Source of the DNA: Candidatus Shapirobacteria bacterium | GTDB lineage: Bacteria; Patescibacteriota; Microgenomatia; UBA12405; BS750m-G30 | Length of the DNA: 64,000 nt | Direction of reading: 5' to 3' | NCBI GenBank assembly: GCA_043817235.1 | Contig: JBDRHA010000011.1 | Location: 35,223-99,222 of the forward strand | Part shown: positions 19,857 through 28,413 of the stretch, piece by piece | Numbering within the stretch: position 1 is the stretch's first letter | Layout: each line of letters begins with the position of its first letter | Program-made: the position numbers and the translations under genes | Notes under the pieces: model-generated | The model's database searches: none | Told to the model about the DNA's origin: nothing | Seen by the model: only the letters and a program-made list of their open reading frames with translations

Positions 19857-19871
19857 AACGGAGCGTGGCGC
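19857..19871 (+). repeat. 15-nt direct repeat AACGGAGCGTGGCGC (copy 1), a duplicate of the tRNA-Pro 5' end, followed by a GC-rich hairpin (19872-19911)
   Basis: Identical to 20161-20175. It is followed by CGCGCCCGC...GCGGGCGGG and then AATTGGCAAGC, which resembles the tRNA D-loop AATTGGCTAGC. Confidence 0.7.
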
Positions 19872-19925: not shown

Positions 19926-20162
19926 ATGTATATTACCTATGTTTTAAAAAGTAAAAAAGATAATAAGTTATACATCGGATACACTAAGAATATAGAAGCA
20001 AGACTAGAAGAACACAATCACGGATTGGTCAATGCAACGAAAAATAGAAGGCCGTTCGAAGTAGTTTATTTCGAAGCATGCAGAAACAAACATAAAGCTT
20101 TACAAAGAGAAAAATATTTTAAAACAGGTTTTGGAAGAAGATTTTTGAAAACAAGAATTTAA
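19926..20162 (+). CDS. small GIY-YIG nuclease family protein (COG2827-like)
   Basis: MYITYVLKSKKDNKLYIGYTKNIEARLEEHNHG is a GIY-YIG/URI domain. Start set at ATG 19926 (the ORF track begins at TTG 19914). Confidence 0.7.
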   Translation: MYITYVLKSKKDNKLYIGYTKNIEARLEEHNHGLVNATKNRRPFEVVYFEACRNKHKALQREKYFKTGFGRRFLKTRI

Positions 20163-20175
20163 CGGAGCGTGGCGC
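20161..20175 (+). repeat. 15-nt direct repeat copy 2 (overlaps the GIY-YIG stop codon and the tRNA-Pro 5' end)
   Basis: Exact match to 19857-19871; the two copies are 304 bp apart. Confidence 0.7.
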
Positions 20176-20236
20176 AATTGGCTAGCGCGTTCGGATGGGG
20201 TCCGAAAGGCTGCGGGTTCAAATCCCGCCGCTCCGA
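20163..20236 (+). tRNA. tRNA-Pro (anticodon GGG), CCA not encoded
   Basis: Hand fold: acceptor CGGAGCG/CGCUCCG with the C1-G72 pair typical of tRNA-Pro; D-stem GCGC/GCGC; anticodon stem UUCGG/CCGAA; loop AUGGGGU (U33, G37); T-arm GCGGG-UUCAAAU-CCCGC; discriminator A. Confidence 0.75.
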
Positions 20237-20263
20237 CACATGTTTTAAGATATATAATAAGTT

Positions 20264-22135
20264 ATGGATCAAACTGAAGGACAACCTAAGTTCGAGATTC
20301 AAGCAGTAATTGAACAAAAACCATTTGCAGCCAGAACCGCAAGGTCTTTTTTTAGCAAATGGTGCGAAATAAATAGCTCTATTCAGCCAGAATTTATTGA
20401 CCGAGAGACGTGGGAAGCAAGAAACCAAGAAGGCATCTTGGAAGAAAGATCGGGCGGAAAACAGGTTCTTTTTATTCCTAAAGATTTACATCTTTGGGAA
20501 ATGATCGGGGTAATGGAAGCCATAGACAACTCTACCTTCGCCGCAAAACTGGAAAGACGAACTGAAGCAAAAGAGAAATTATTAAAGCTTGGAAAAAATT
20601 TTCAAGATGCCGGGGCTTACATTGCCCAACGATTAGGCGGAATTAACGAAGGCAAGGGCATAGCAGAGGCACTTGCTCTGGAATTCTATGGCTATGGACA
20701 GTCTCTAATCTCAGGAAAAAAACCAAAAGATGCTTCTAGTATAGAAGAAATTGCCGCAAGAGAACTCACACCGGAAGAACTAGAGGCAACTGATCGCTTT
20801 CTGACTGGAGAAAGTCTTTATAAATCTCGACAAAAAAGAGCTAAGAACAATCTTGAAAAAGAGCGGCAAAAAACTCTGGCCCAGTTTTTCCGTCTAGCCG
20901 AGAAAGCTTTTACTCTTACCAAGAGAAGCGAACTCCACAAGCCCAGCACAAGGTTAAAACCATGGCAGAGTGACGCACCAATCCATGCTGTATTTCTCGA
21001 AAGAGTGGAAAAAGCAGTAACTCAAAAGATCAAAACTCCCGAAAGAGAGCTCACGGCCGCAGTTTTTCGGCGCGGCCTAGAGAGACTGGCGAGTGAAATG
21101 AGAGAAACCACTGACATGCACGACGAAAGGACCGGAGAAATCACGCCAGGATGGAAAAGAGCTTTAAATAAGTTTCTTGTCAATATTGGGCTTGATCCAA
21201 TCATTGAGCAAAAAAGATTAATGGAAGTGCTCGAGATTCCGAAACTAAGAAACGAATTGAAAGATATCCACCGCTCAGGAGACTCTGTCCAAATAAGCAC
21301 TAAAGAGCGGGAAATTGCTGATAAAATCCAACGAGCAGTATCTGATTTTCCTTATCAAGAGTTTGCAAATAGTCCAGCGAAAATGATCGCTAAAAAATAC
21401 GTCAATTGCGTAGGAGCATCAATGCTGGGAGGCGCTTTAATGAAGGAAGTCGGGTTAAGGTACTTAGTCGCAGATGCGCCCGACCATTCCGTAATCCTTC
21501 TTATAACCAATGACGGAGAAGTTGAATTGCGAGACATGGGAAGGGTTTCAGGAAATGTAAAGTTAAAAGATGAAATGATTAAAAAGCAAAAAGAAGATGG
21601 CAGTCTTCTTGCCGTAAAAGACATTGTGGCCTTCAGCCTTAACCCTTCGCCTAAAGGGTTAAGGTTTGATGTTATCAGCCCGGTTTATCGTATTATTTTC
21701 CCCTGGGTGCAAGCAATTGATCGGCCATATTTGACTGTATTCGGGCCTGAACACGGAGAACAAGCTCAGGTATTAGGAAATACTGCTAACACTTTTTGGT
21801 CCATACTTAATTTCGAAAAAAGCACTGAAGGTTATCGTCGGGTTATAGCAACTGATCCGAATAAAAGTACGGTATATTTTAATTTGGGTCTTGCTTTTTA
21901 CGCTCACAGTCGGGAGAAAGAAGCAATAAAATTTTTTCGGCAAGCATTAGTTATTAATCCCAAGTTTGCAGATGCTTACTATGAACTAGCCCAGGTCTTC
22001 CAATCTTATAAGCGCTATCAGGAAGCAGCTGAAACATACCGGGAATTTATTGGTCTAGCAGATGAAAATAGAGATAAAAGAAAAATAAAAAGAGCTAAGC
22101 GAATGATTGCTAAATTAGCAAAAAGATCTAATTAA
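20264..22135 (+). CDS. hypothetical 623-aa protein: transglutaminase-like Cys-His-Asp core plus C-terminal TPR repeats
   Basis: KYVNCVGASMLGGALMKEVGLRYLVADAPDHSVILLITNDGEVELRD resembles the C...H...D core of transglutaminase-like peptidases (inference). The C-terminal YFNLGLAFYAHSREKEAIKFFRQALVINPKFADAYYELAQVF are TPR repeats. Confidence 0.5.
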   Translation: MDQTEGQPKFEIQAVIEQKPFAARTARSFFSKWCEINSSIQPEFIDRETWEARNQEGILEERSGGKQVLFIPKDLHLWEMIGVMEAIDNSTFAAKLERRTEAKEKLLKLGKNFQDAGAYIAQRLGGINEGKGIAEALALEFYGYGQSLISGKKPKDASSIEEIAARELTPEELEATDRFLTGESLYKSRQKRAKNNLEKERQKTLAQFFRLAEKAFTLTKRSELHKPSTRLKPWQSDAPIHAVFLERVEKAVTQKIKTPERELTAAVFRRGLERLASEMRETTDMHDERTGEITPGWKRALNKFLVNIGLDPIIEQKRLMEVLEIPKLRNELKDIHRSGDSVQISTKEREIADKIQRAVSDFPYQEFANSPAKMIAKKYVNCVGASMLGGALMKEVGLRYLVADAPDHSVILLITNDGEVELRDMGRVSGNVKLKDEMIKKQKEDGSLLAVKDIVAFSLNPSPKGLRFDVISPVYRIIFPWVQAIDRPYLTVFGPEHGEQAQVLGNTANTFWSILNFEKSTEGYRRVIATDPNKSTVYFNLGLAFYAHSREKEAIKFFRQALVINPKFADAYYELAQVFQSYKRYQEAAETYREFIGLADENRDKRKIKRAKRMIAKLAKRSN

Positions 22136-22875
22136 GCCAACTGGATATAGGTAATATTTCTATCCCCAAAATAGGATACTAGAGAATCTTTGTCGTGAGA
22201 AACAGAAGTAAAATCAATCCCAGTACATTTATTCTCAACCAATGCTTGTTTCGCTTTATCGTTTACATAAAACCCAATCGGGTTGACTACGGTTGGAGAA
22301 AAAAACAAATCCAAGTCTTTATATAGTCCCGATTTTATAGCTAAGATTTCCGCCCAAACTTGGGTAACCTCTTTGGTATTCAAACTTTCTTTATCGGCTC
22401 TCATCACTTCTTTTGCCGAATTTAAATTTAATTGTTTTAACTTTTTTTTCGATATTACTTCAATCAGCCAAAATTTAGATTTTTTAAAGTCAATTTGTTT
22501 TAAATGCTCCTTTTGCTCGATAACCTGAAAGGCATTATAGCCGCCAATCTTTTTTCCCCTCTGTTTTAAGATAACCGAATGAATCTGATAAGGTGGTAAT
22601 TTTAAACCTAAAAAAATCTTTAGTAGTTTGTTACTAACAACTAAAACAGAGGGATTAAGAGGCACACAGCTAATAAGATCAGTTAAAGTTGCCCCGTCTA
22701 TTACCTCCAAATAGTTAAAATTTGGCTTAAGGTTAGGAAATTTAATCTGATTAAGTTTATAAACTGAATCAGGTGCGTTTTTATCGTAGTCCGGACTCAT
22801 TTTTCGGCATTGAGGATAGGGAGCCCTGCCAATTCCGGTTAATGAATGCTTTAGCAAATAGATCGCTGACTTCAT
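22132..22875 (-). CDS. hypothetical protein (247 aa)
   Basis: Long ORF with a complex composition, convergent with the TPR gene and overlapping it by 4 nt. No recognisable family. Confidence 0.45.
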   Translation of the reverse strand: MKSAIYLLKHSLTGIGRAPYPQCRKMSPDYDKNAPDSVYKLNQIKFPNLKPNFNYLEVIDGATLTDLISCVPLNPSVLVVSNKLLKIFLGLKLPPYQIHSVILKQRGKKIGGYNAFQVIEQKEHLKQIDFKKSKFWLIEVISKKKLKQLNLNSAKEVMRADKESLNTKEVTQVWAEILAIKSGLYKDLDLFFSPTVVNPIGFYVNDKAKQALVENKCTGIDFTSVSHDKDSLVSYFGDRNITYIQLA

Positions 22876-22927
22876 AGCCTAATTTTCCCAAAACCTAACT
22901 GCCCTTGTCAATTATCAAACTAAAGCT

Positions 22928-22953
22928 TATCTCTTCAGAGATTGCTTTTTCCC
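22928..22953 (+). repeat. copy (a) of the rpsI 3'-end sequence (att-like core)
   Basis: TATCTCTTCAGAGATTGCTTTTTCCC. The minus strand reads GKKQSLKR-stop, against rpsI KKKQSPKR-stop, and matches 28003-28030 at 24 of 28 positions. Confidence 0.65.
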
Positions 22954-22990
22954 TTTTCAAAAAAACTCTGATTTTGATAAAATTAACTGA

Positions 22991-23936
22991 ATGAAAAAAA
23001 TTTTATTAATTGATGCTGACGGCATAGTAATTGAGCCACGCGATAGGTATTTTAGCGAAAAGTTTTCTGAAGAATATAATGTTCCTCTTGAAAAAATTCT
23101 TCCATTTTTTAAAAACGAGTATAAAAAGGCATCTTTAGGAAAGATTGATCTAAGAAAAGCCTTACCGGCTTACCTCAAAAGGTGGGGGCTGGAAAAAAAG
23201 CGTGAATGACTTTCTTGAATACTGGTTTGAGAGTGAAAAGAAAGTAGACAAACAAATAATAAGCCTGGTAGATAATTTAAGAAAAAGAGGCATTAAGTGC
23301 TATCTTGTTTCTGATAACGAAAAAAGAAGAACAGAGTATTTATGGGACAATTTAAATTTAAAAAATCATTTTGATGGTGCTTTTTCCTCCTCTGCCTCAG
23401 GGGTCACAAAATCGGAAAAATCCTTTTTCCAAAAAATATTAACCAAGTTATCAGCGACACCCTCTGAAATAATTTACTGGGACGATGATCTTAAAAACGT
23501 TAAGACTGGAAAAGCAGCAGGGATAGAATCTTATTTTTACAAAGATTTTGGGGAATTTATTAGAAGGTTAGACAAAGTATTACCTAAAGTAATGAAAAAA
23601 GTTATGGCCTTCAATAGTGATGATTTTTATTGCGATCTAGTTTTTAGCAAGAAAATTAAAGTGAAAATTGTTAAAGAAACAAAAGAACTATTAGCTTTTT
23701 ATCATACTCGGCCAAGCTGGTCGACTCATATCGTAATTGTCCCCAAAAAACATATTGCTAAACTTACAGACGTAAAAGACATGAATCTGATTAAAGAAAT
23801 TTTTTCTATTGCTAAAGAAATTATTATCGAAAATGATTGGGATAATAAAAACTTCAAAATAATTTCGAATGGCGGAACTTTTCAAGATTCCGAACATCTT
23901 CATTTTCATCTCGTTTCCGGAAAGAAAATAAGATAG
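22991..23936 (+). CDS. HAD-IA hydrolase fused to a HIT-family hydrolase, split by a frameshift near 23202
   Basis: ORF1 carries HAD motif I (LLIDADGIV). ORF2 carries HAD motifs II-IV (YLVSDN, K, WDDD) and then a HIT domain with the histidine triad HLHFHLV. The two ORFs overlap by 8 nt at GGAAAAAAAGCG. The second frame is open from about 23150, so a 1-nt indel would fuse them. Confidence 0.5.
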
Positions 23937-23963
23937 ATCAGAGGAGATTGCTTTTTCTTTCTA
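23937..23963 (+). repeat. copy (b) of the rpsI 3'-end sequence (att-like core, degenerate)
   Basis: ATCAGAGGAGATTGCTTTTTCTTTC. The minus strand reads KKKQSP.., and GGAGAtTGCTTTTTCTT matches the rpsI end. Confidence 0.55.
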
Positions 23964-23991
23964 TTACTATTAACAATAACTTTTGTTAAAA

Positions 23992-23997
23992 TTGACA
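23992..23997 (+). promoter_or_regulatory. TTGACA -35-like box upstream of the dinD-like gene
   Basis: AATTGACA lies about 30 nt downstream of repeat (b). No canonical -10 at 17-nt spacing. Confidence 0.2.
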
Positions 23998-24043
23998 GGT
24001 GAAAATTACCTAAGCTTTGGAGGAGTTATTTCGAAACGATTTA

Positions 24044-24886
24044 ATGAAAAAATCAAATTCGATCATCTTATTCAAACAGAAAAAAATTCGTCGCACTTGG
24101 GACGAACAAAAGGAACTATGGTATTTCTCGATTGTTGATGTTGTTGGTATATTGACTGGTAGCCCAAGACCACGAAAATACTGGAATGCTCTTAAAACAA
24201 AGCTAAAAGAGGAAGGAAGTGAGTTGCCCCAAAAAGTGGGACAACTGAAATTAAAATCATCTGACGGAAAAAAATATTTTACAGATGTCGCTGTTGTAGA
24301 AACTCTTTTAAGACTGATTCAATCAATTCCATCGCCTAAAGCTGAGCCATTTAAGGTATGACTGGCTAAAGTGGGTTATGAAAGAATTGAAGAGACCGAA
24401 GATCCTGAGCGTGCAATAGATAGAGCGATGAAAACTTATTTGCAAAAAGGATACTCAAAAGAATGGATAAATCAGCGATTAAAAAGCATTGAAGTCAGAA
24501 AAGAACTTACCGATGAATGGCAAGACAGAAAGATGAAAGAGGGACTGGAATGCGCAATATTGACAGATGAAATTACAAAAGCTTGGGCTGACAAAAGCGT
24601 TAGAACTTATAAAAAGTTCAAGGGCCTAAAAAGAGAAAATCTGCGGGATAATATGACAAATTTGGAGTTGATTCTCAATATGCTGGCAGAGGCCCCTACA
24701 ACGGAAATATCTAAAAAGCAACTGCCGAGGGGGCAAAAATAAAAATGATCAGTAGCCCGCAAAGGTGGCTGCGCAGCCAAGAAAGCAAGACTTGAAATTG
24801 AAAAACAAACTGGAGAAAAAGTTGTTAGCCCTAAAAATGCTAAACGTTTACACGGGAAAGAATCAAAGAAATTACCAACAAACTAA
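24044..24886 (+). pseudogene. DNA-damage-inducible protein D (DinD)-like gene with three in-frame stop codons
   Basis: A single frame encodes a DinD-like N-terminus (TWDEQKELWYFSIVDVVGIL...). After TGA at 24359-24361 comes ..YSKEWINQRLKSIEVRKELTDEW..LKGLKRENLRDNMTNLELI..EAPTTEI, and after TAA 24740 and TGA 24746 comes ..ARKGGCAAKKARLEIEKQTGEKVVSPKNAK. There are no frameshifts. ORF-track pieces are 24017..24361 and 24371..24742. Confidence 0.6.
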
Positions 24887-24912
24887 TTTACCTCTTCGGA
24901 GATTTTTTTAAT
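24887..24912 (+). repeat. copy (c) of the rpsI 3'-end sequence (att-like core)
   Basis: AATTTACCTCTTCGGAGATTTTTTTA. TTACCTCTTCGGAGA is identical to the rpsI end, and the minus strand reads ..KSPKR-stop. Confidence 0.6.
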
Positions 24913-24919
24913 AGACTAA

Positions 24920-24948
24920 TTGACAAAATTTTACAGGAAAGATAAACT
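24920..24948 (+). promoter_or_regulatory. sigma70-like promoter TTGACA-N17-TAAACT upstream of the DUF3160-like gene
   Basis: TTGACA at 24920-24925, a 17-nt spacer, TAAACT at 24943-24948, and ATG at 24963. Confidence 0.4.
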
Positions 24949-24962
24949 GGGTTCATACCTCT

Positions 24963-27287
24963 ATGACTATGGAAGATCAAAATTATAATCAGATTGTGCC
25001 GGAAAATCTTCAAACCGCGCCACCCATTGTTCCTAAACCAAAAAACAAGAAAAAGTTTTTTATAGTTTCAGGAATTTTAGGAACTCTAATAATTACTTTT
25101 CTAGCCTTTTACTTGGGGCAGTTAAGCCGGGAAACATTAAAGGAAGCCCCTCAAAACACTAATAATCCAGCTTCTATTTTGACTGCTAATTTCGCTACCT
25201 ATGAAGAAATACCGGTAAACATCAACCCGAAAATCCCGCCTTATTCGGTCAGCCAAGACCTGAGCAATGTTTTAAATGCAGAAGATTTTACTTTTTCTTC
25301 AGAAGTGAAAGATTTATTAGTAAAAAACGCCTTTGCTGTAAGACCAGCTCACAACGACGAGTTTTTCTCGCTTTACGAGTCAAATCGCTATAACTACACA
25401 CCGAATTTCATTACTACTGATTCCATGATCCATAATTACCACTTGATGTTCGATTTCTTGCTAAAACAGCTTGAGGAGCAAAAACTTGCAGATGAGCTAA
25501 AACAGTTAAGCGCGAATATGCTTTCTGAGTCATTAAGTCAACATAGTAGTTTGAAAGGAACAGAATGGGAAAATGCCGCGAAAAGGAATGTCGGATTTTT
25601 CACTGTCGGCAGTAAACTTCTGGACCCATCGCTAGCCGTTCCTTCCCTTGTCACAAATGAGGTAAACCAAGAACTAACTCTTATCGAAGCTCATCAGAAC
25701 ATAGAGAAGTCGCCTGTAATGAGTATTGGCAGCGCCAATAATACTATGATCGATACCCCGCAAGGACTACAATCACTAGAGGCGCTAAAAGAAGATTATT
25801 CCCAATATATACCTCGTGGACATTATGACAAAACAGAACAGCTAAAAGCCTATTTTAAGTCAATGATGTGGTATGGACGTCTAACTTTCAGAATGAAAAA
25901 TGATGATGAAATAAAATCAGCCTTACTTATCACTTTGGCTCTCAGCAAAGAGGACAATCAAAACAGCTGGAATAAGATTTACGAGCCGGTGAATTTCTTT
26001 GTGGGCAAGAGCGATGACATTACGTATTATCAATTAAAGGATTTAGTAGAAAAAGTTTACGGTACGAATGCGACAATTCAATTGGTAGCAAATGATAAAA
26101 ATAAACTTGCCTCTTTCATTGACGAAACTAAAAATTTGGAACCACCGCAAATAAATTCCATACCCATTTTTGAAGCTTCAATCCAAGCCGATAGAGAAAA
26201 AGAAATTAAGGGGTTTCGCTTTATGGGGCAAAGATTCACTATCGATGCTTCTATCTTTCAACGACTAGTTTATCGGGAAGTTGGCGATAAAACTAAATCT
26301 TGTCAAGAATTTAAACCAAACGAAACAGGCTGCCTGCAAGGAGCGCGGTGTCTTCCTAAAGGGCTAGATATCCCTGCGACTCTAGGATCAAACGAGGCTA
26401 AAAATACATTGAAAGGATTAGGTGAAACCAGCTATTCTTGCTACTCGGAAAACATGGCCAAAATGAACGAGTACATTACCAGTCTTAATACAGAGACCTG
26501 GACTCAAAACTTATATTGGGGTTGGCTATATCAACTTCGCCCGCTCCTTGATGAAAAATTGAGCGGTTATCCAAGTTTTATGCAAAACACCGCCTGGCTA
26601 AGAAAAGATCTCAGCGCGTTTTTGGGGAGTTGGACAGAATTGAAGCATGATACCATACTTTACGCAAAACAAGTTTATGCCGAGTTTGGCGGAGGCCTTA
26701 TCGAAGAAAAAGACGATCGCGGTTATGTTGAGCCGAATCCTTTTGTTTACGCGCGTCTTGCTTCACTTCTGAGAATGACAAGCGAAGGACTAGAAATACG
26801 AGGATTATTAACAACAAGCATGAAAGATAATTTAAGCAAATTGGAACAATTAGCAGTGTCGCTCAAAATAATATCGGAAAAAGAATTGAATAATGAAGAA
26901 TTAACTAACGAAGAATACGAGCTTATTCGCTCGTATGGTGGGCAATTAGAGCATTTTTGGCTGGAAGTTAACAAAGATGAAGCAACCTTCAAAGAGTCTA
27001 CCAGTCAAGAAGACTACCTAAACGAGAATCCGGCTGCCATTGTGGCGGATGTTGCTACTGACCCGAATGGAAGAGTACTAGAAGAGGGCACTGGTAATAT
27101 TTTTGAGATCTTTGTCGTAATTCCGATTGATGGTAAATTAAGAATTGCCAAAGGCGGTGTTTATTCCTACTACGAGTTTACTTGGCCTCTCTCAGAGAGA
27201 CTAACTGACAAGAAATGGCGAGAAATAATTGACTCCGACCAAACCCCCCAGCTACCGGAATGGACTAATAATTATATAGCCCAGTAG
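24963..27287 (+). CDS. large membrane-anchored extracytoplasmic protein (DUF3160-like)
   Basis: 774 aa with an N-terminal TM helix and a large domain with conserved Cys pairs. It resembles DUF3160 proteins; family assignment from memory only. Confidence 0.45.
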   Translation: MTMEDQNYNQIVPENLQTAPPIVPKPKNKKKFFIVSGILGTLIITFLAFYLGQLSRETLKEAPQNTNNPASILTANFATYEEIPVNINPKIPPYSVSQDLSNVLNAEDFTFSSEVKDLLVKNAFAVRPAHNDEFFSLYESNRYNYTPNFITTDSMIHNYHLMFDFLLKQLEEQKLADELKQLSANMLSESLSQHSSLKGTEWENAAKRNVGFFTVGSKLLDPSLAVPSLVTNEVNQELTLIEAHQNIEKSPVMSIGSANNTMIDTPQGLQSLEALKEDYSQYIPRGHYDKTEQLKAYFKSMMWYGRLTFRMKNDDEIKSALLITLALSKEDNQNSWNKIYEPVNFFVGKSDDITYYQLKDLVEKVYGTNATIQLVANDKNKLASFIDETKNLEPPQINSIPIFEASIQADREKEIKGFRFMGQRFTIDASIFQRLVYREVGDKTKSCQEFKPNETGCLQGARCLPKGLDIPATLGSNEAKNTLKGLGETSYSCYSENMAKMNEYITSLNTETWTQNLYWGWLYQLRPLLDEKLSGYPSFMQNTAWLRKDLSAFLGSWTELKHDTILYAKQVYAEFGGGLIEEKDDRGYVEPNPFVYARLASLLRMTSEGLEIRGLLTTSMKDNLSKLEQLAVSLKIISEKELNNEELTNEEYELIRSYGGQLEHFWLEVNKDEATFKESTSQEDYLNENPAAIVADVATDPNGRVLEEGTGNIFEIFVVIPIDGKLRIAKGGVYSYYEFTWPLSERLTDKKWREIIDSDQTPQLPEWTNNYIAQ

Positions 27288-27316
27288 ACAAATTTATTAC
27301 CATTACGAAAAGATGG

Positions 27317-27997
27317 ATGCAAAGAAAAATCGCAGGGTCAATTTTATTATCTTTCGTTTTTGTTGCTATCCTTTGGGGTTGTAAGCACTATTACCGAAGG
27401 CATTTTCCCTACTCATCAGTTTATTTTGGCAATAGCATTGCTTCAAAAAAAGAAATGGCTGACCTGGATAATAATTCCAGTCCAGAGACTTATTGTCTTG
27501 AAAACGGACGTCTGACCATCAAGGAAAATACAAAAACTGTTTGGCAATCACCCCTTGAGTGGCAGATAGATGATTTTGTTATTGAAGATTCTAATAACGA
27601 TGGCGTCTTGGATATAAATTTATCTCTTTGGAAACCAGGAAATTTTGGCACATCAAGGCCATTTTGGGTTGAAGAAAACGACATGAGCGTAAAAAATCAT
27701 TTTTTCGTTTTAGATTTTATTAACGGTTCGACAAAACAAATTTGGGGCTCTTCTAGTCTCAGTGAGCCAAATTGCGAATTTCAAATCGCTGATATTGATA
27801 ATGATGGAAAAAATGATTTGATCGTAATCGAAGGAGACTATTCCCAAAAACCAGATTGTAACGGAAATTATCTTGCTGTTTGGAAATGGAACGGCTGGGG
27901 ATTTTCAAATGAGTGGCGAAGTGAAAAAGGAAATTTTTCTCACTTTGAGATTGAAAAAATTGATGAAAAAGAGTACATTATCGCAAATCCGCCATGA
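27317..27997 (+). CDS. secreted/membrane-anchored protein with FG-GAP/calcium-binding-like DxDxDG repeats
   Basis: N-terminal TM/signal; DSNNDGVLDINLSLW and DIDNDGKNDLIVIEGDY motifs. Confidence 0.45.
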   Translation: MQRKIAGSILLSFVFVAILWGCKHYYRRHFPYSSVYFGNSIASKKEMADLDNNSSPETYCLENGRLTIKENTKTVWQSPLEWQIDDFVIEDSNNDGVLDINLSLWKPGNFGTSRPFWVEENDMSVKNHFFVLDFINGSTKQIWGSSSLSEPNCEFQIADIDNDGKNDLIVIEGDYSQKPDCNGNYLAVWKWNGWGFSNEWRSEKGNFSHFEIEKIDEKEYIIANPP

Positions 27998-28002
27998 GAA
28001 AC

Positions 28003-28030
28003 TTACCTCTTCGGAGACTGCTTTTTCTTG
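28003..28030 (+). repeat. copy (d): the authentic rpsI 3' end, reference copy of the repeated core
   Basis: TTACCTCTTCGGAGACTGCTTTTTCTTG encodes ..KKKQSPKR-stop on the minus strand. Confidence 0.65.
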
Positions 28031-28413
28031 CGGGCGCGGCCCATTTGCCCAGCTTTTCTTCTCTCTCTTATTCGCGAATCAACCGTGAGCAAGCCCTTCT
28101 CGCGCATGAGAGGCCTATAAACACCTTCGTTATACTTTACTAAAGCCCGAGCTAATGATAAAGATATTGCTTCTGCCTGGCTTTTAAAGCCGCCGCCTCT
28201 TACCCAAAAATAGCCATAAAACTTTCCTTGGCATTCACCGGCAATTAAAGGTTTTTCATAAATTGCCCTTAGTCTTTCGCCGGGAAAATATTTGGCAATT
28301 GGCCTTTGATTAACTGTAAATTCTCCCTTCCCTTCAAATAAGCGAAGGGTGGCCGAAGCCTCTTTTCTTCTTCCTTTGGAATATATGTATTTTTTCTTTC
28401 TGCCTTTAGCCAT
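28003..28413 (-). CDS. rpsI: 30S ribosomal protein S9
   Basis: Ends ..RRKAGQMGRARKKKQSPKR. Start set at MAKGRKK (ORF track 28461). Confidence 0.85.
   Translation of the reverse strand: MAKGRKKKYIYSKGRRKEASATLRLFEGKGEFTVNQRPIAKYFPGERLRAIYEKPLIAGECQGKFYGYFWVRGGGFKSQAEAISLSLARALVKYNEGVYRPLMREKGLLTVDSRIRERRKAGQMGRARKKKQSPKR

Follow-up and report, generated by a model that had tools for sequence, protein, structure and literature searches.

How do pieces of the 3' end of a ribosomal protein gene come to lie, one after another and all in the gene's own orientation, in the DNA behind it? The question is raised by a 64-kb stretch (hereafter the window) of a metagenome-assembled genome (MAG) of Candidatus Shapirobacteria, which belongs to the Microgenomates of the Candidate Phyla Radiation (CPR). 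The window includes the end of the ribosomal super-operon, whose last gene, rpsI, encodes ribosomal protein S9, and past this gene three modules of plus-strand genes are separated by copies of the rpsI terminus (Table 1). A reading made from the letters and open reading frames (ORFs) alone, here called the sequence-only reading, had ascribed the arrangement to serial site-specific integration at the end of rpsI. From a computational follow-up we favour, with moderate confidence, the tandem accretion of small, decayed, acquired islets without an integrase at the rpsI 3' end as the best explanation.

Table 1. Features between tRNA-Pro and rpsI, in window coordinates; L and R are the arms on the two sides of the core.
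Feature	Position	Strand	Remarks
tRNA-Pro(ggg)	20163..20237	+	Convergent with rpsI; conserved far border of the variable interval
Imm11-family immunity-like gene (247 aa)	22132..22875	-	Flanks site a; assigned through homologues
Site a, near-complete displaced rpsI terminus	22923..22951	-	KKQSLKR-stop; 51 nt upstream of the Imm11-like gene
Module 1, HAD-HIT fusion gene	22952..23942	+	Pfam HIT and HAD matches; ORFs in two frames
Site b, codon-upstream half copy	23943..23959	-	Unrelated GATCAGAG, then core and R arm
Module 2, Bro-N (phrog_15286) pseudogene	23960..24887	+	In-frame TGA at 24359-24361; frameshift near 24742-24757
Site c, stop-proximal half copy	24885..24904	-	L arm and core, then unrelated TTTTTAATAG; encodes ...KSPKR-stop
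Module 3, DUF3160 gene and partner	24903..28002	+	DUF3160 at 24963-27287 (Pfam E 7e-233); partner at 27317-27997
Site d, live rpsI terminus	27999..28030	-	Plus strand: L arm TTACCTCTTCG, core GAGACT, R arm GCTTTTTCTT
rpsI (ribosomal protein S9)	28003..28413	-	Pfam Ribosomal_S9 E 2.8e-31; intact; last gene of the super-operon
Motif of the rpsI end			TTAYCTCTTCRGAGAYTGCTTTTTC

The true end of rpsI (28003-28027, minus strand, ...KKKQSPKR-stop; site d) belongs to a gene that is full length in the window, and the S9 C-terminus ARKKKQSPKR-stop is kept across all relatives. Alignment confirmed that the extra copies, sites a, b and c, run in the same direction as site d and are intergenic; all of them lie within 5.1 kb of the live rpsI end. 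The sequence-only reading had counted four copies of about 25 nt. The repeats are real (none in 60 simulations, see below), but only site a has the full length, and sites b and c are halves of 14-20 nt. Site a is identical to d at 22 of 25 positions (22927-22951 against 28003-28027), or at 25 of 29 when the flank is included (22923-22951 against 27999-28027). In-frame stops had been noticed just upstream of a and c; in site a the S9 frame is indeed closed two codons upstream, and of the three coding changes in this site two are silent, whereas site c closes a 41-codon ORF. Site c contains the 15-mer TTACCTCTTCGGAGA (24888-24902), exact against d (20/22 with flank), and site b the 14-mer GAGATTGCTTTTTC (23944-23957), exact against a and matching d at 16 of 17 positions. 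Both halves stop abruptly. Their common overlap is GGAGATT; to one side the L arm of c equals that of d (11/11), and to the other the R arm of b does (10/10). The four sites can thus be written as L-core-R (d), L'-core-R' (a), L-core-x (c) and y-core-R (b), with the core GAGAYT, and a fusion of the left part of c with the right part of b restores the rpsI site at 27 of 28 nt. Judged from sequence, this reciprocity suggests hybrid attachment (att) sites of the kind that conservative reciprocal recombination would leave.

In a sequence as AT-rich as the window, arbitrary positions often share exact 13-16-mers (112 observed, about 78 simulated), and for this reason the significance of the repeats rests on the fixed rpsI-end query. 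With this query, the window yielded one site at 15/15, two at 16/17 and one at 22/25, while 60 windows simulated with a Markov-3 model yielded none at any of these levels; among 100 shuffles there was none with a second match at <=3 mismatches to the rpsI end. No further copy of the rpsI end was detected on either strand of the 64 kb.

Module 1 has a GC content of 31-34%, against about 40% in the backbone. Its frameshift was seen as previously described; it is a single one, in a run of five G (23186-23190), and could be a sequencing error, so that the status of module 1 as a pseudogene rests on one position. For module 2, the reading as a pseudogene stood. Intact homologues of its Bro-N gene number more than 8000, with 80-86% protein identity across CPR phyla (Parcubacteria, Microgenomates) and 77-82% DNA identity, and the nucleotide homology is restricted to 24044-24872, starting at the start codon and stopping at the 3' end of the gene. 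The best homologues of the DUF3160 protein of module 3 are 73-79% identical and come from CPR3, Kuenenbacteria and Parcubacteria; here too the nucleotide homology ends at the ORF borders. The partner ("FG-GAP") gene, earlier taken to be intact, is internally deleted in comparison with its homologues, which are PGA_cap plus FG-GAP proteins of 578-580 aa. It retains the signal segment and the C-terminal 186 aa, aligning to residues ~392-578 of the homologues; ~350 aa (1.2 kb) between these two parts are gone, and the PGA_cap domain is lost with them. The promoter-like boxes said to follow each repeat occur at chance frequency (24 found, 23 expected). Among 5.8 billion proteins searched, the nearest non-self S9 is 77% identical. 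The identities of the cargo reach or exceed this value and therefore argue, at the level of sequence comparison, for modules made of horizontally mobile CPR genes that were recently acquired.

The two kinds of cargo have different surroundings in other genomes. Bro-N genes are found within RadC-Dam-BroN-PLD-methylase clusters (L025-L035), usually with a Dam-type methylase (in some cases a fusion with RadC) on one side and a PLD-family nuclease on the other, which looks like a mobile restriction/defence cluster; most Bro-N contigs are only 1-5 kb long, as expected of a repeat that breaks assemblies. The DUF3160 pair occurs in varied contexts, mostly near tRNA genes. In L016 (293-335 and 4977-5018; L017 is alike) the DUF3160/PGA_cap pair is bracketed by a 43-nt direct repeat, 79% identical, which consists of the last 8 nt of the tRNA-Ser(gga) 3' end and 35 nt of flank, and whose alignment score of 23 compares with a shuffle maximum of 16. 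An extra T-loop match, GGTTCGAAT, lies upstream of this repeat in L016/L017. No direct repeats were found around the pair in L019 and L023.

The gene order rpsI, tRNA-Pro(ggg), recA recurs across Microgenomates, and the distant contig L015 has it too (9 lineages). In the window recA, recX and RNase Y lie at 16.4-19.8 kb, beyond rpsI in minus-strand order, and the interval from rpsI to recA holds tRNA-Pro(ggg), a small GIY-YIG ORF, a TPR protein, the 247-aa protein and the three modules. Where the window has about 8 kb, the syntenic relatives L004 and L046 have 0.05-0.6 kb: in L004 the gap between rpsI and tRNA-Pro is 50 nt, and in L046 a 0.6-kb NDK gene stands alone between rpsI and recA, the downstream order agreeing with the window gene for gene. 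Other lineages carry 1.3-7.3 kb of unrelated cargo, e.g. glycosyltransferases, SufBD, Fic, a HinP1I restriction-modification system and LexA. The empty site that the sequence-only reading proposed to look for has near-empty counterparts in L004 and L046, but all the relatives are <=77% identical in S9, and the contrast is one between lineages and not a strain-level polymorphism.

A second displaced rpsI end was found independently. It is on L015, a distant CPR contig that came up when metagenomes were scanned for the motif; the window S9 is only about 40-44% identical to those of the distant CPR loci L014 and L015. At 8428-8577 of L015 the live rpsI end, ARRKKQSPKR-stop, is followed by 28 open in-frame codons and, ~85 nt on, by a second ARRKKQSPKR-stop, from which the next gene is 6 nt away. 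Each copy is 33 nt long; 10 positions differ between the two, every one of them synonymously, and identical runs are at most about 6 nt long. Each copy therefore has a history as a functional S9 terminus in a lineage of its own, from before the two came together. The pattern can be compared with that of phage 21/e14 at icd, where the integrating DNA brings a replacement gene end. The 84-nt spacer in L015 is GC-rich and moderately structured (z = -2.3). Nucleotide, half-site and peptide searches of 14 other rpsI loci gave a relic in L015 only, and the viral collection contained neither a copy of the motif nor a CPR provirus bearing rpsI.

Tandem accretion best fits the reciprocal half-sites with their GAGAYT core, the intact rpsI, the foreign mobile cargo, the near-empty sites in relatives and the relic in L015, which are direct observations; by analogy, the tRNA-Ser repeat around the DUF3160 pair in L016/L017, the tRNA-Pro relics described below and the streptococcal precedent also support it. 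From these we infer site-specific, enzyme-mediated recombination and an order of events. The recombination target would be a segment of ~28 bp that covers the final codons of S9 together with its stop codon (L TTACCTCTTCG, core GAGAYT, R GCTTTTTCTT), and each incoming DNA would recombine conservatively inside this segment or inside a displaced copy of it. The live gene would keep a full end (d), and older ends would be pushed downstream, as the relic a and as the hybrid junctions b (foreign-core-R) and c (L-core-foreign). Two histories fit the data equally well. In one, the Bro-N module would have arrived first, between two full sites, followed by HAD-HIT in the distal copy and the DUF3160 pair in the proximal one; in the other, a HAD-HIT/DUF3160 island would have come first, and a Bro-N circle with a full copy of the site would then have entered the secondary site GGAGATT. 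Since no recombinase is encoded in the modules, it would be supplied in trans or would have disappeared, as is the case for cis-mobilizable elements (CIMEs).

Several results weigh against this explanation. We searched the non-ribosomal ORFs of the window and the rpsI-recA intervals of relatives with Pfam, NCBIfam and PHROGs. As the sequence-only reading had stated, no recombinase was found among the window ORFs scanned: neither the modules nor the other scanned ORFs have an integrase, relaxase or transposase domain, and no integrase was found in the intervals of the relatives scanned (L002, L005-L008, L011). Xer genes were likewise not seen among the window ORFs, FtsK being the sole find. The modules, at 1-3 kb, are far below the size of known remnants left by integrative and conjugative elements (ICEs) or integrative and mobilizable elements (IMEs), with zero trace of mobility genes. 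Identity common to all four sites amounts to only ~6 nt, and the L and R arms lack the inverted symmetry that marks a canonical recombinase core site. Two relics truncated independently would share the breakpoints of b and c about one time in 4-5, so that their match is suggestive but not conclusive. Relics occur in only 2 of about 16 lineages examined, and the database searches gave no close relative for a presence/absence test, the best non-self S9 being that at 77%. The serial integration first proposed is plausible and partly supported, as the reading that agrees best with the anatomy of the locus.

An unlikely alternative is homology-facilitated illegitimate recombination after DNA uptake, without a site-specific enzyme. 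Here the 3' part of a donor rpsI with its cargo would be anchored in the ribosomal operon, and the far end joined by microhomology inside the recipient rpsI end. The failure to find a recombinase agrees with this, as do recA and the conserved anchors on both sides; the synonymous differences and short identical runs of the L015 copies suit allele replacement by a diverged donor, and each lineage has its own cargo between rpsI and tRNA-Pro, with repeats absent in most. However, in a gene of 411 nt, where illegitimate joints could lie at any point, the breakpoints of a, b, c and L015 are all confined to the final 15-33 nt. Module 1, being on the far side of a relic, could not be anchored in rpsI, and the reciprocity of b and c with a 7-nt overlap is that of a conservative single crossover and not of one-sided end joining.

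A broader scheme, which we consider improbable, is a gene exchange within the CPR in which integrases act in trans and single genes or pairs are captured at conserved gene termini used as attachment sites. The circulating genes would be Bro-N, the DUF3160 pair and small GIY-YIG genes, at 75-86% identity across phyla; the targets would be the rpsI 3' end, the tRNA-Pro ends and the tRNA-Ser 3' end, and each cassette would carry only a short mimic of the gene end. Such a system would be functionally integron-like, with the ends of housekeeping genes used instead.

It is very unlikely that the sites are a lineage-specific functional element, i.e. a bidirectional terminator or an RNA stability hairpin (TCTC-TTCG-GAGA and a T-run), which the rpsI end merely resembles. 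Sites b, c and d do start 0-6 nt past a plus-strand stop codon and continue into a T-rich tract, and site a folds into a small hairpin (z = -2.0). But the folding is weak, with energies between -2.3 (c) and -11 kcal/mol and z values near 0 in b, c and d, and none of the four sites was returned by a terminator scan (>=5-bp GC-rich stem and U-tract). Moreover, site a follows no plus-strand gene, the copies keep the S9 frame and stop with synonymous changes, no more of them exist in the 64 kb, and the motif is not found behind the same genes in other genomes. An Rfam search of 19.8-28.5 kb and of L015 gave tRNA and nothing else. A chance resemblance, or an artefact of assembly, is scarcely credible: short shared words are frequent in this AT-rich window and the contig is a metagenome assembly, but the three matches together have no counterpart in any of 60-100 windows made by simulation or shuffling, assembler k-mers are longer than these repeats, and the junction of site d with the FG-GAP gene was recovered at 100% in an independent Logan assembly (L013). 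The sole exact-match contig found is a 994-bp duplicate of the window.

The claim that an insertion hotspot at the rpsI terminus had not been described does not hold, since the rpsI 3' end is a documented integration site (attB) of streptococcal ICEs and IMEs, used by three families of tyrosine integrases with frequent tandem accretion, and CIMEs found there are decayed and integrase-less with attL and attR kept (PMC4701971, PMC5357655, PMC5704250, PMC5090054). The window resembles the streptococcal rpsI elements (IMESag-rpsI, IME_..._rpsI; Tyr_4/5/7) in the target, the position within it and the intact gene, and the streptococcal arrays in direct repeats that contain the gene end, hybrid internal att sites and decayed members without integrase. 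It differs from them in the phylum, in modules that are single genes or pairs of 1-3 kb, in the lack of any integrase, relaxase or transfer origin (oriT) remnant and in a common identity of ~6 nt. By analogy, the missing integrase makes the array compatible with the definition of a CIME, while its derivation from an ICE or IME is unproven. The array is a known kind of system in a new phylum.

Other systems share single traits with the locus. Phage 21/e14 at icd and the islands at tRNA 3' ends, which have their own integrase and measure tens of kb, are matched by L015 in the replacement end with synonymous differences and the displaced original; unlike in phage 21/e14, no integrase is present here and the duplicated segment is only 25-33 nt long. 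No tRNA-Pro 3'-end repeats that could be the source of an island were found in the window. Integrative mobile elements exploiting Xer (IMEX) and Xer-dif modules (CTX phi, TLC, GGI, Acinetobacter pdif) have no integrase, form arrays and use ~28-bp sites with exchangeable arms, being moved in trans by the host recombinase. This class was rejected: the arms are not inverted repeats, there is no dif-like TTATG motif, and the window site, unlike theirs, overlaps the end of a coding gene and has neither dif-like inverted arms around a 6-bp spacer nor likeness to the dif consensus. With integron cassettes, to which the sequence-only reading had likened the array, the locus shares small co-oriented gene modules, each followed by a repeat. 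The likeness fails in the absence of IntI and attI and of attC structure, the repeats being coding-derived, 14-29 nt long and weakly folding, and the divergent neighbour is of the Imm11 family. A transposon or casposon generating target-site duplications was excluded by unequal duplications (14, 15 and 25-29 nt), the lack of a transposase among the ORFs scanned and the absence of terminal inverted repeats, none of which rose above shuffled controls at the module ends. A motif travelling with its cargo was rejected as well; it is absent after the DUF3160 partner in five other genomes, and in modules 2 and 3 the nucleotide homology does not go past the ORF borders.

The tRNA-Pro boundary of the interval has displaced gene-end relics of the same style as rpsI, in the window, L007, L011 and L015. 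In the window the GIY-YIG ORF (19914/19926-20162) lies between exact 15-nt direct repeats, AACGGAGCGTGGCGC, at 19857-19871 and 20161-20175, whose sequence is that of the tRNA-Pro 5' end; past the upstream copy come a GC-rich hairpin of 39 nt and then a piece resembling tRNA positions 14-26. The layout suggests an element that entered at the 5' end of the tRNA and brought along a replacement 5' part. L011 (13830-14205) has tRNA-Pro positions 1-30, the 20-nt insert CTGTCTGCCGACAGGCAGGC, positions 31-47, a GIY-YIG gene and the intact tRNA. In L007 (13970-14095) a full second tRNA-Pro with the identical 20-nt insert and a 30-nt D-loop insert lies 1.6 kb from the real gene, and L015 (10382-10443) has a 13-nt tRNA-Pro 5' relic with an insert beginning CGCGCCCGC, without an ORF. 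No displaced tRNA-Pro pieces were found in L004 and L046.

The 247-aa protein encoded next to site a has no Pfam match of its own. Its homologues comprise 320 representatives, and 9 of the 10 tested match Imm11, 5 of them above the gathering cut-off; by this Pfam search of its homologues it is not a recombinase. The gene has no adjoining toxin gene and is thus an orphan immunity gene inside the variable interval. A single-sequence AlphaFold model of the protein was unusable (predicted local distance difference test, pLDDT, 35).

Routes of gene acquisition are very little documented in the CPR (Patescibacteria), whose genomes are tiny. In Microgenomates, a recombination scar marks the junction of rpsI, tRNA-Pro and recA as a hotspot of gene acquisition, with a cargo that includes genes shared by CPR phyla in almost the same form. 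In practical terms the scar is of modest value, as a marker for islands in CPR MAGs and as a lead to the recombinase. The finding extends the rpsI target preference of Firmicutes ICEs and IMEs to a very distant lineage and suggests that the conserved coding sequence of the S9 C-terminus has been exploited repeatedly as an attachment site.

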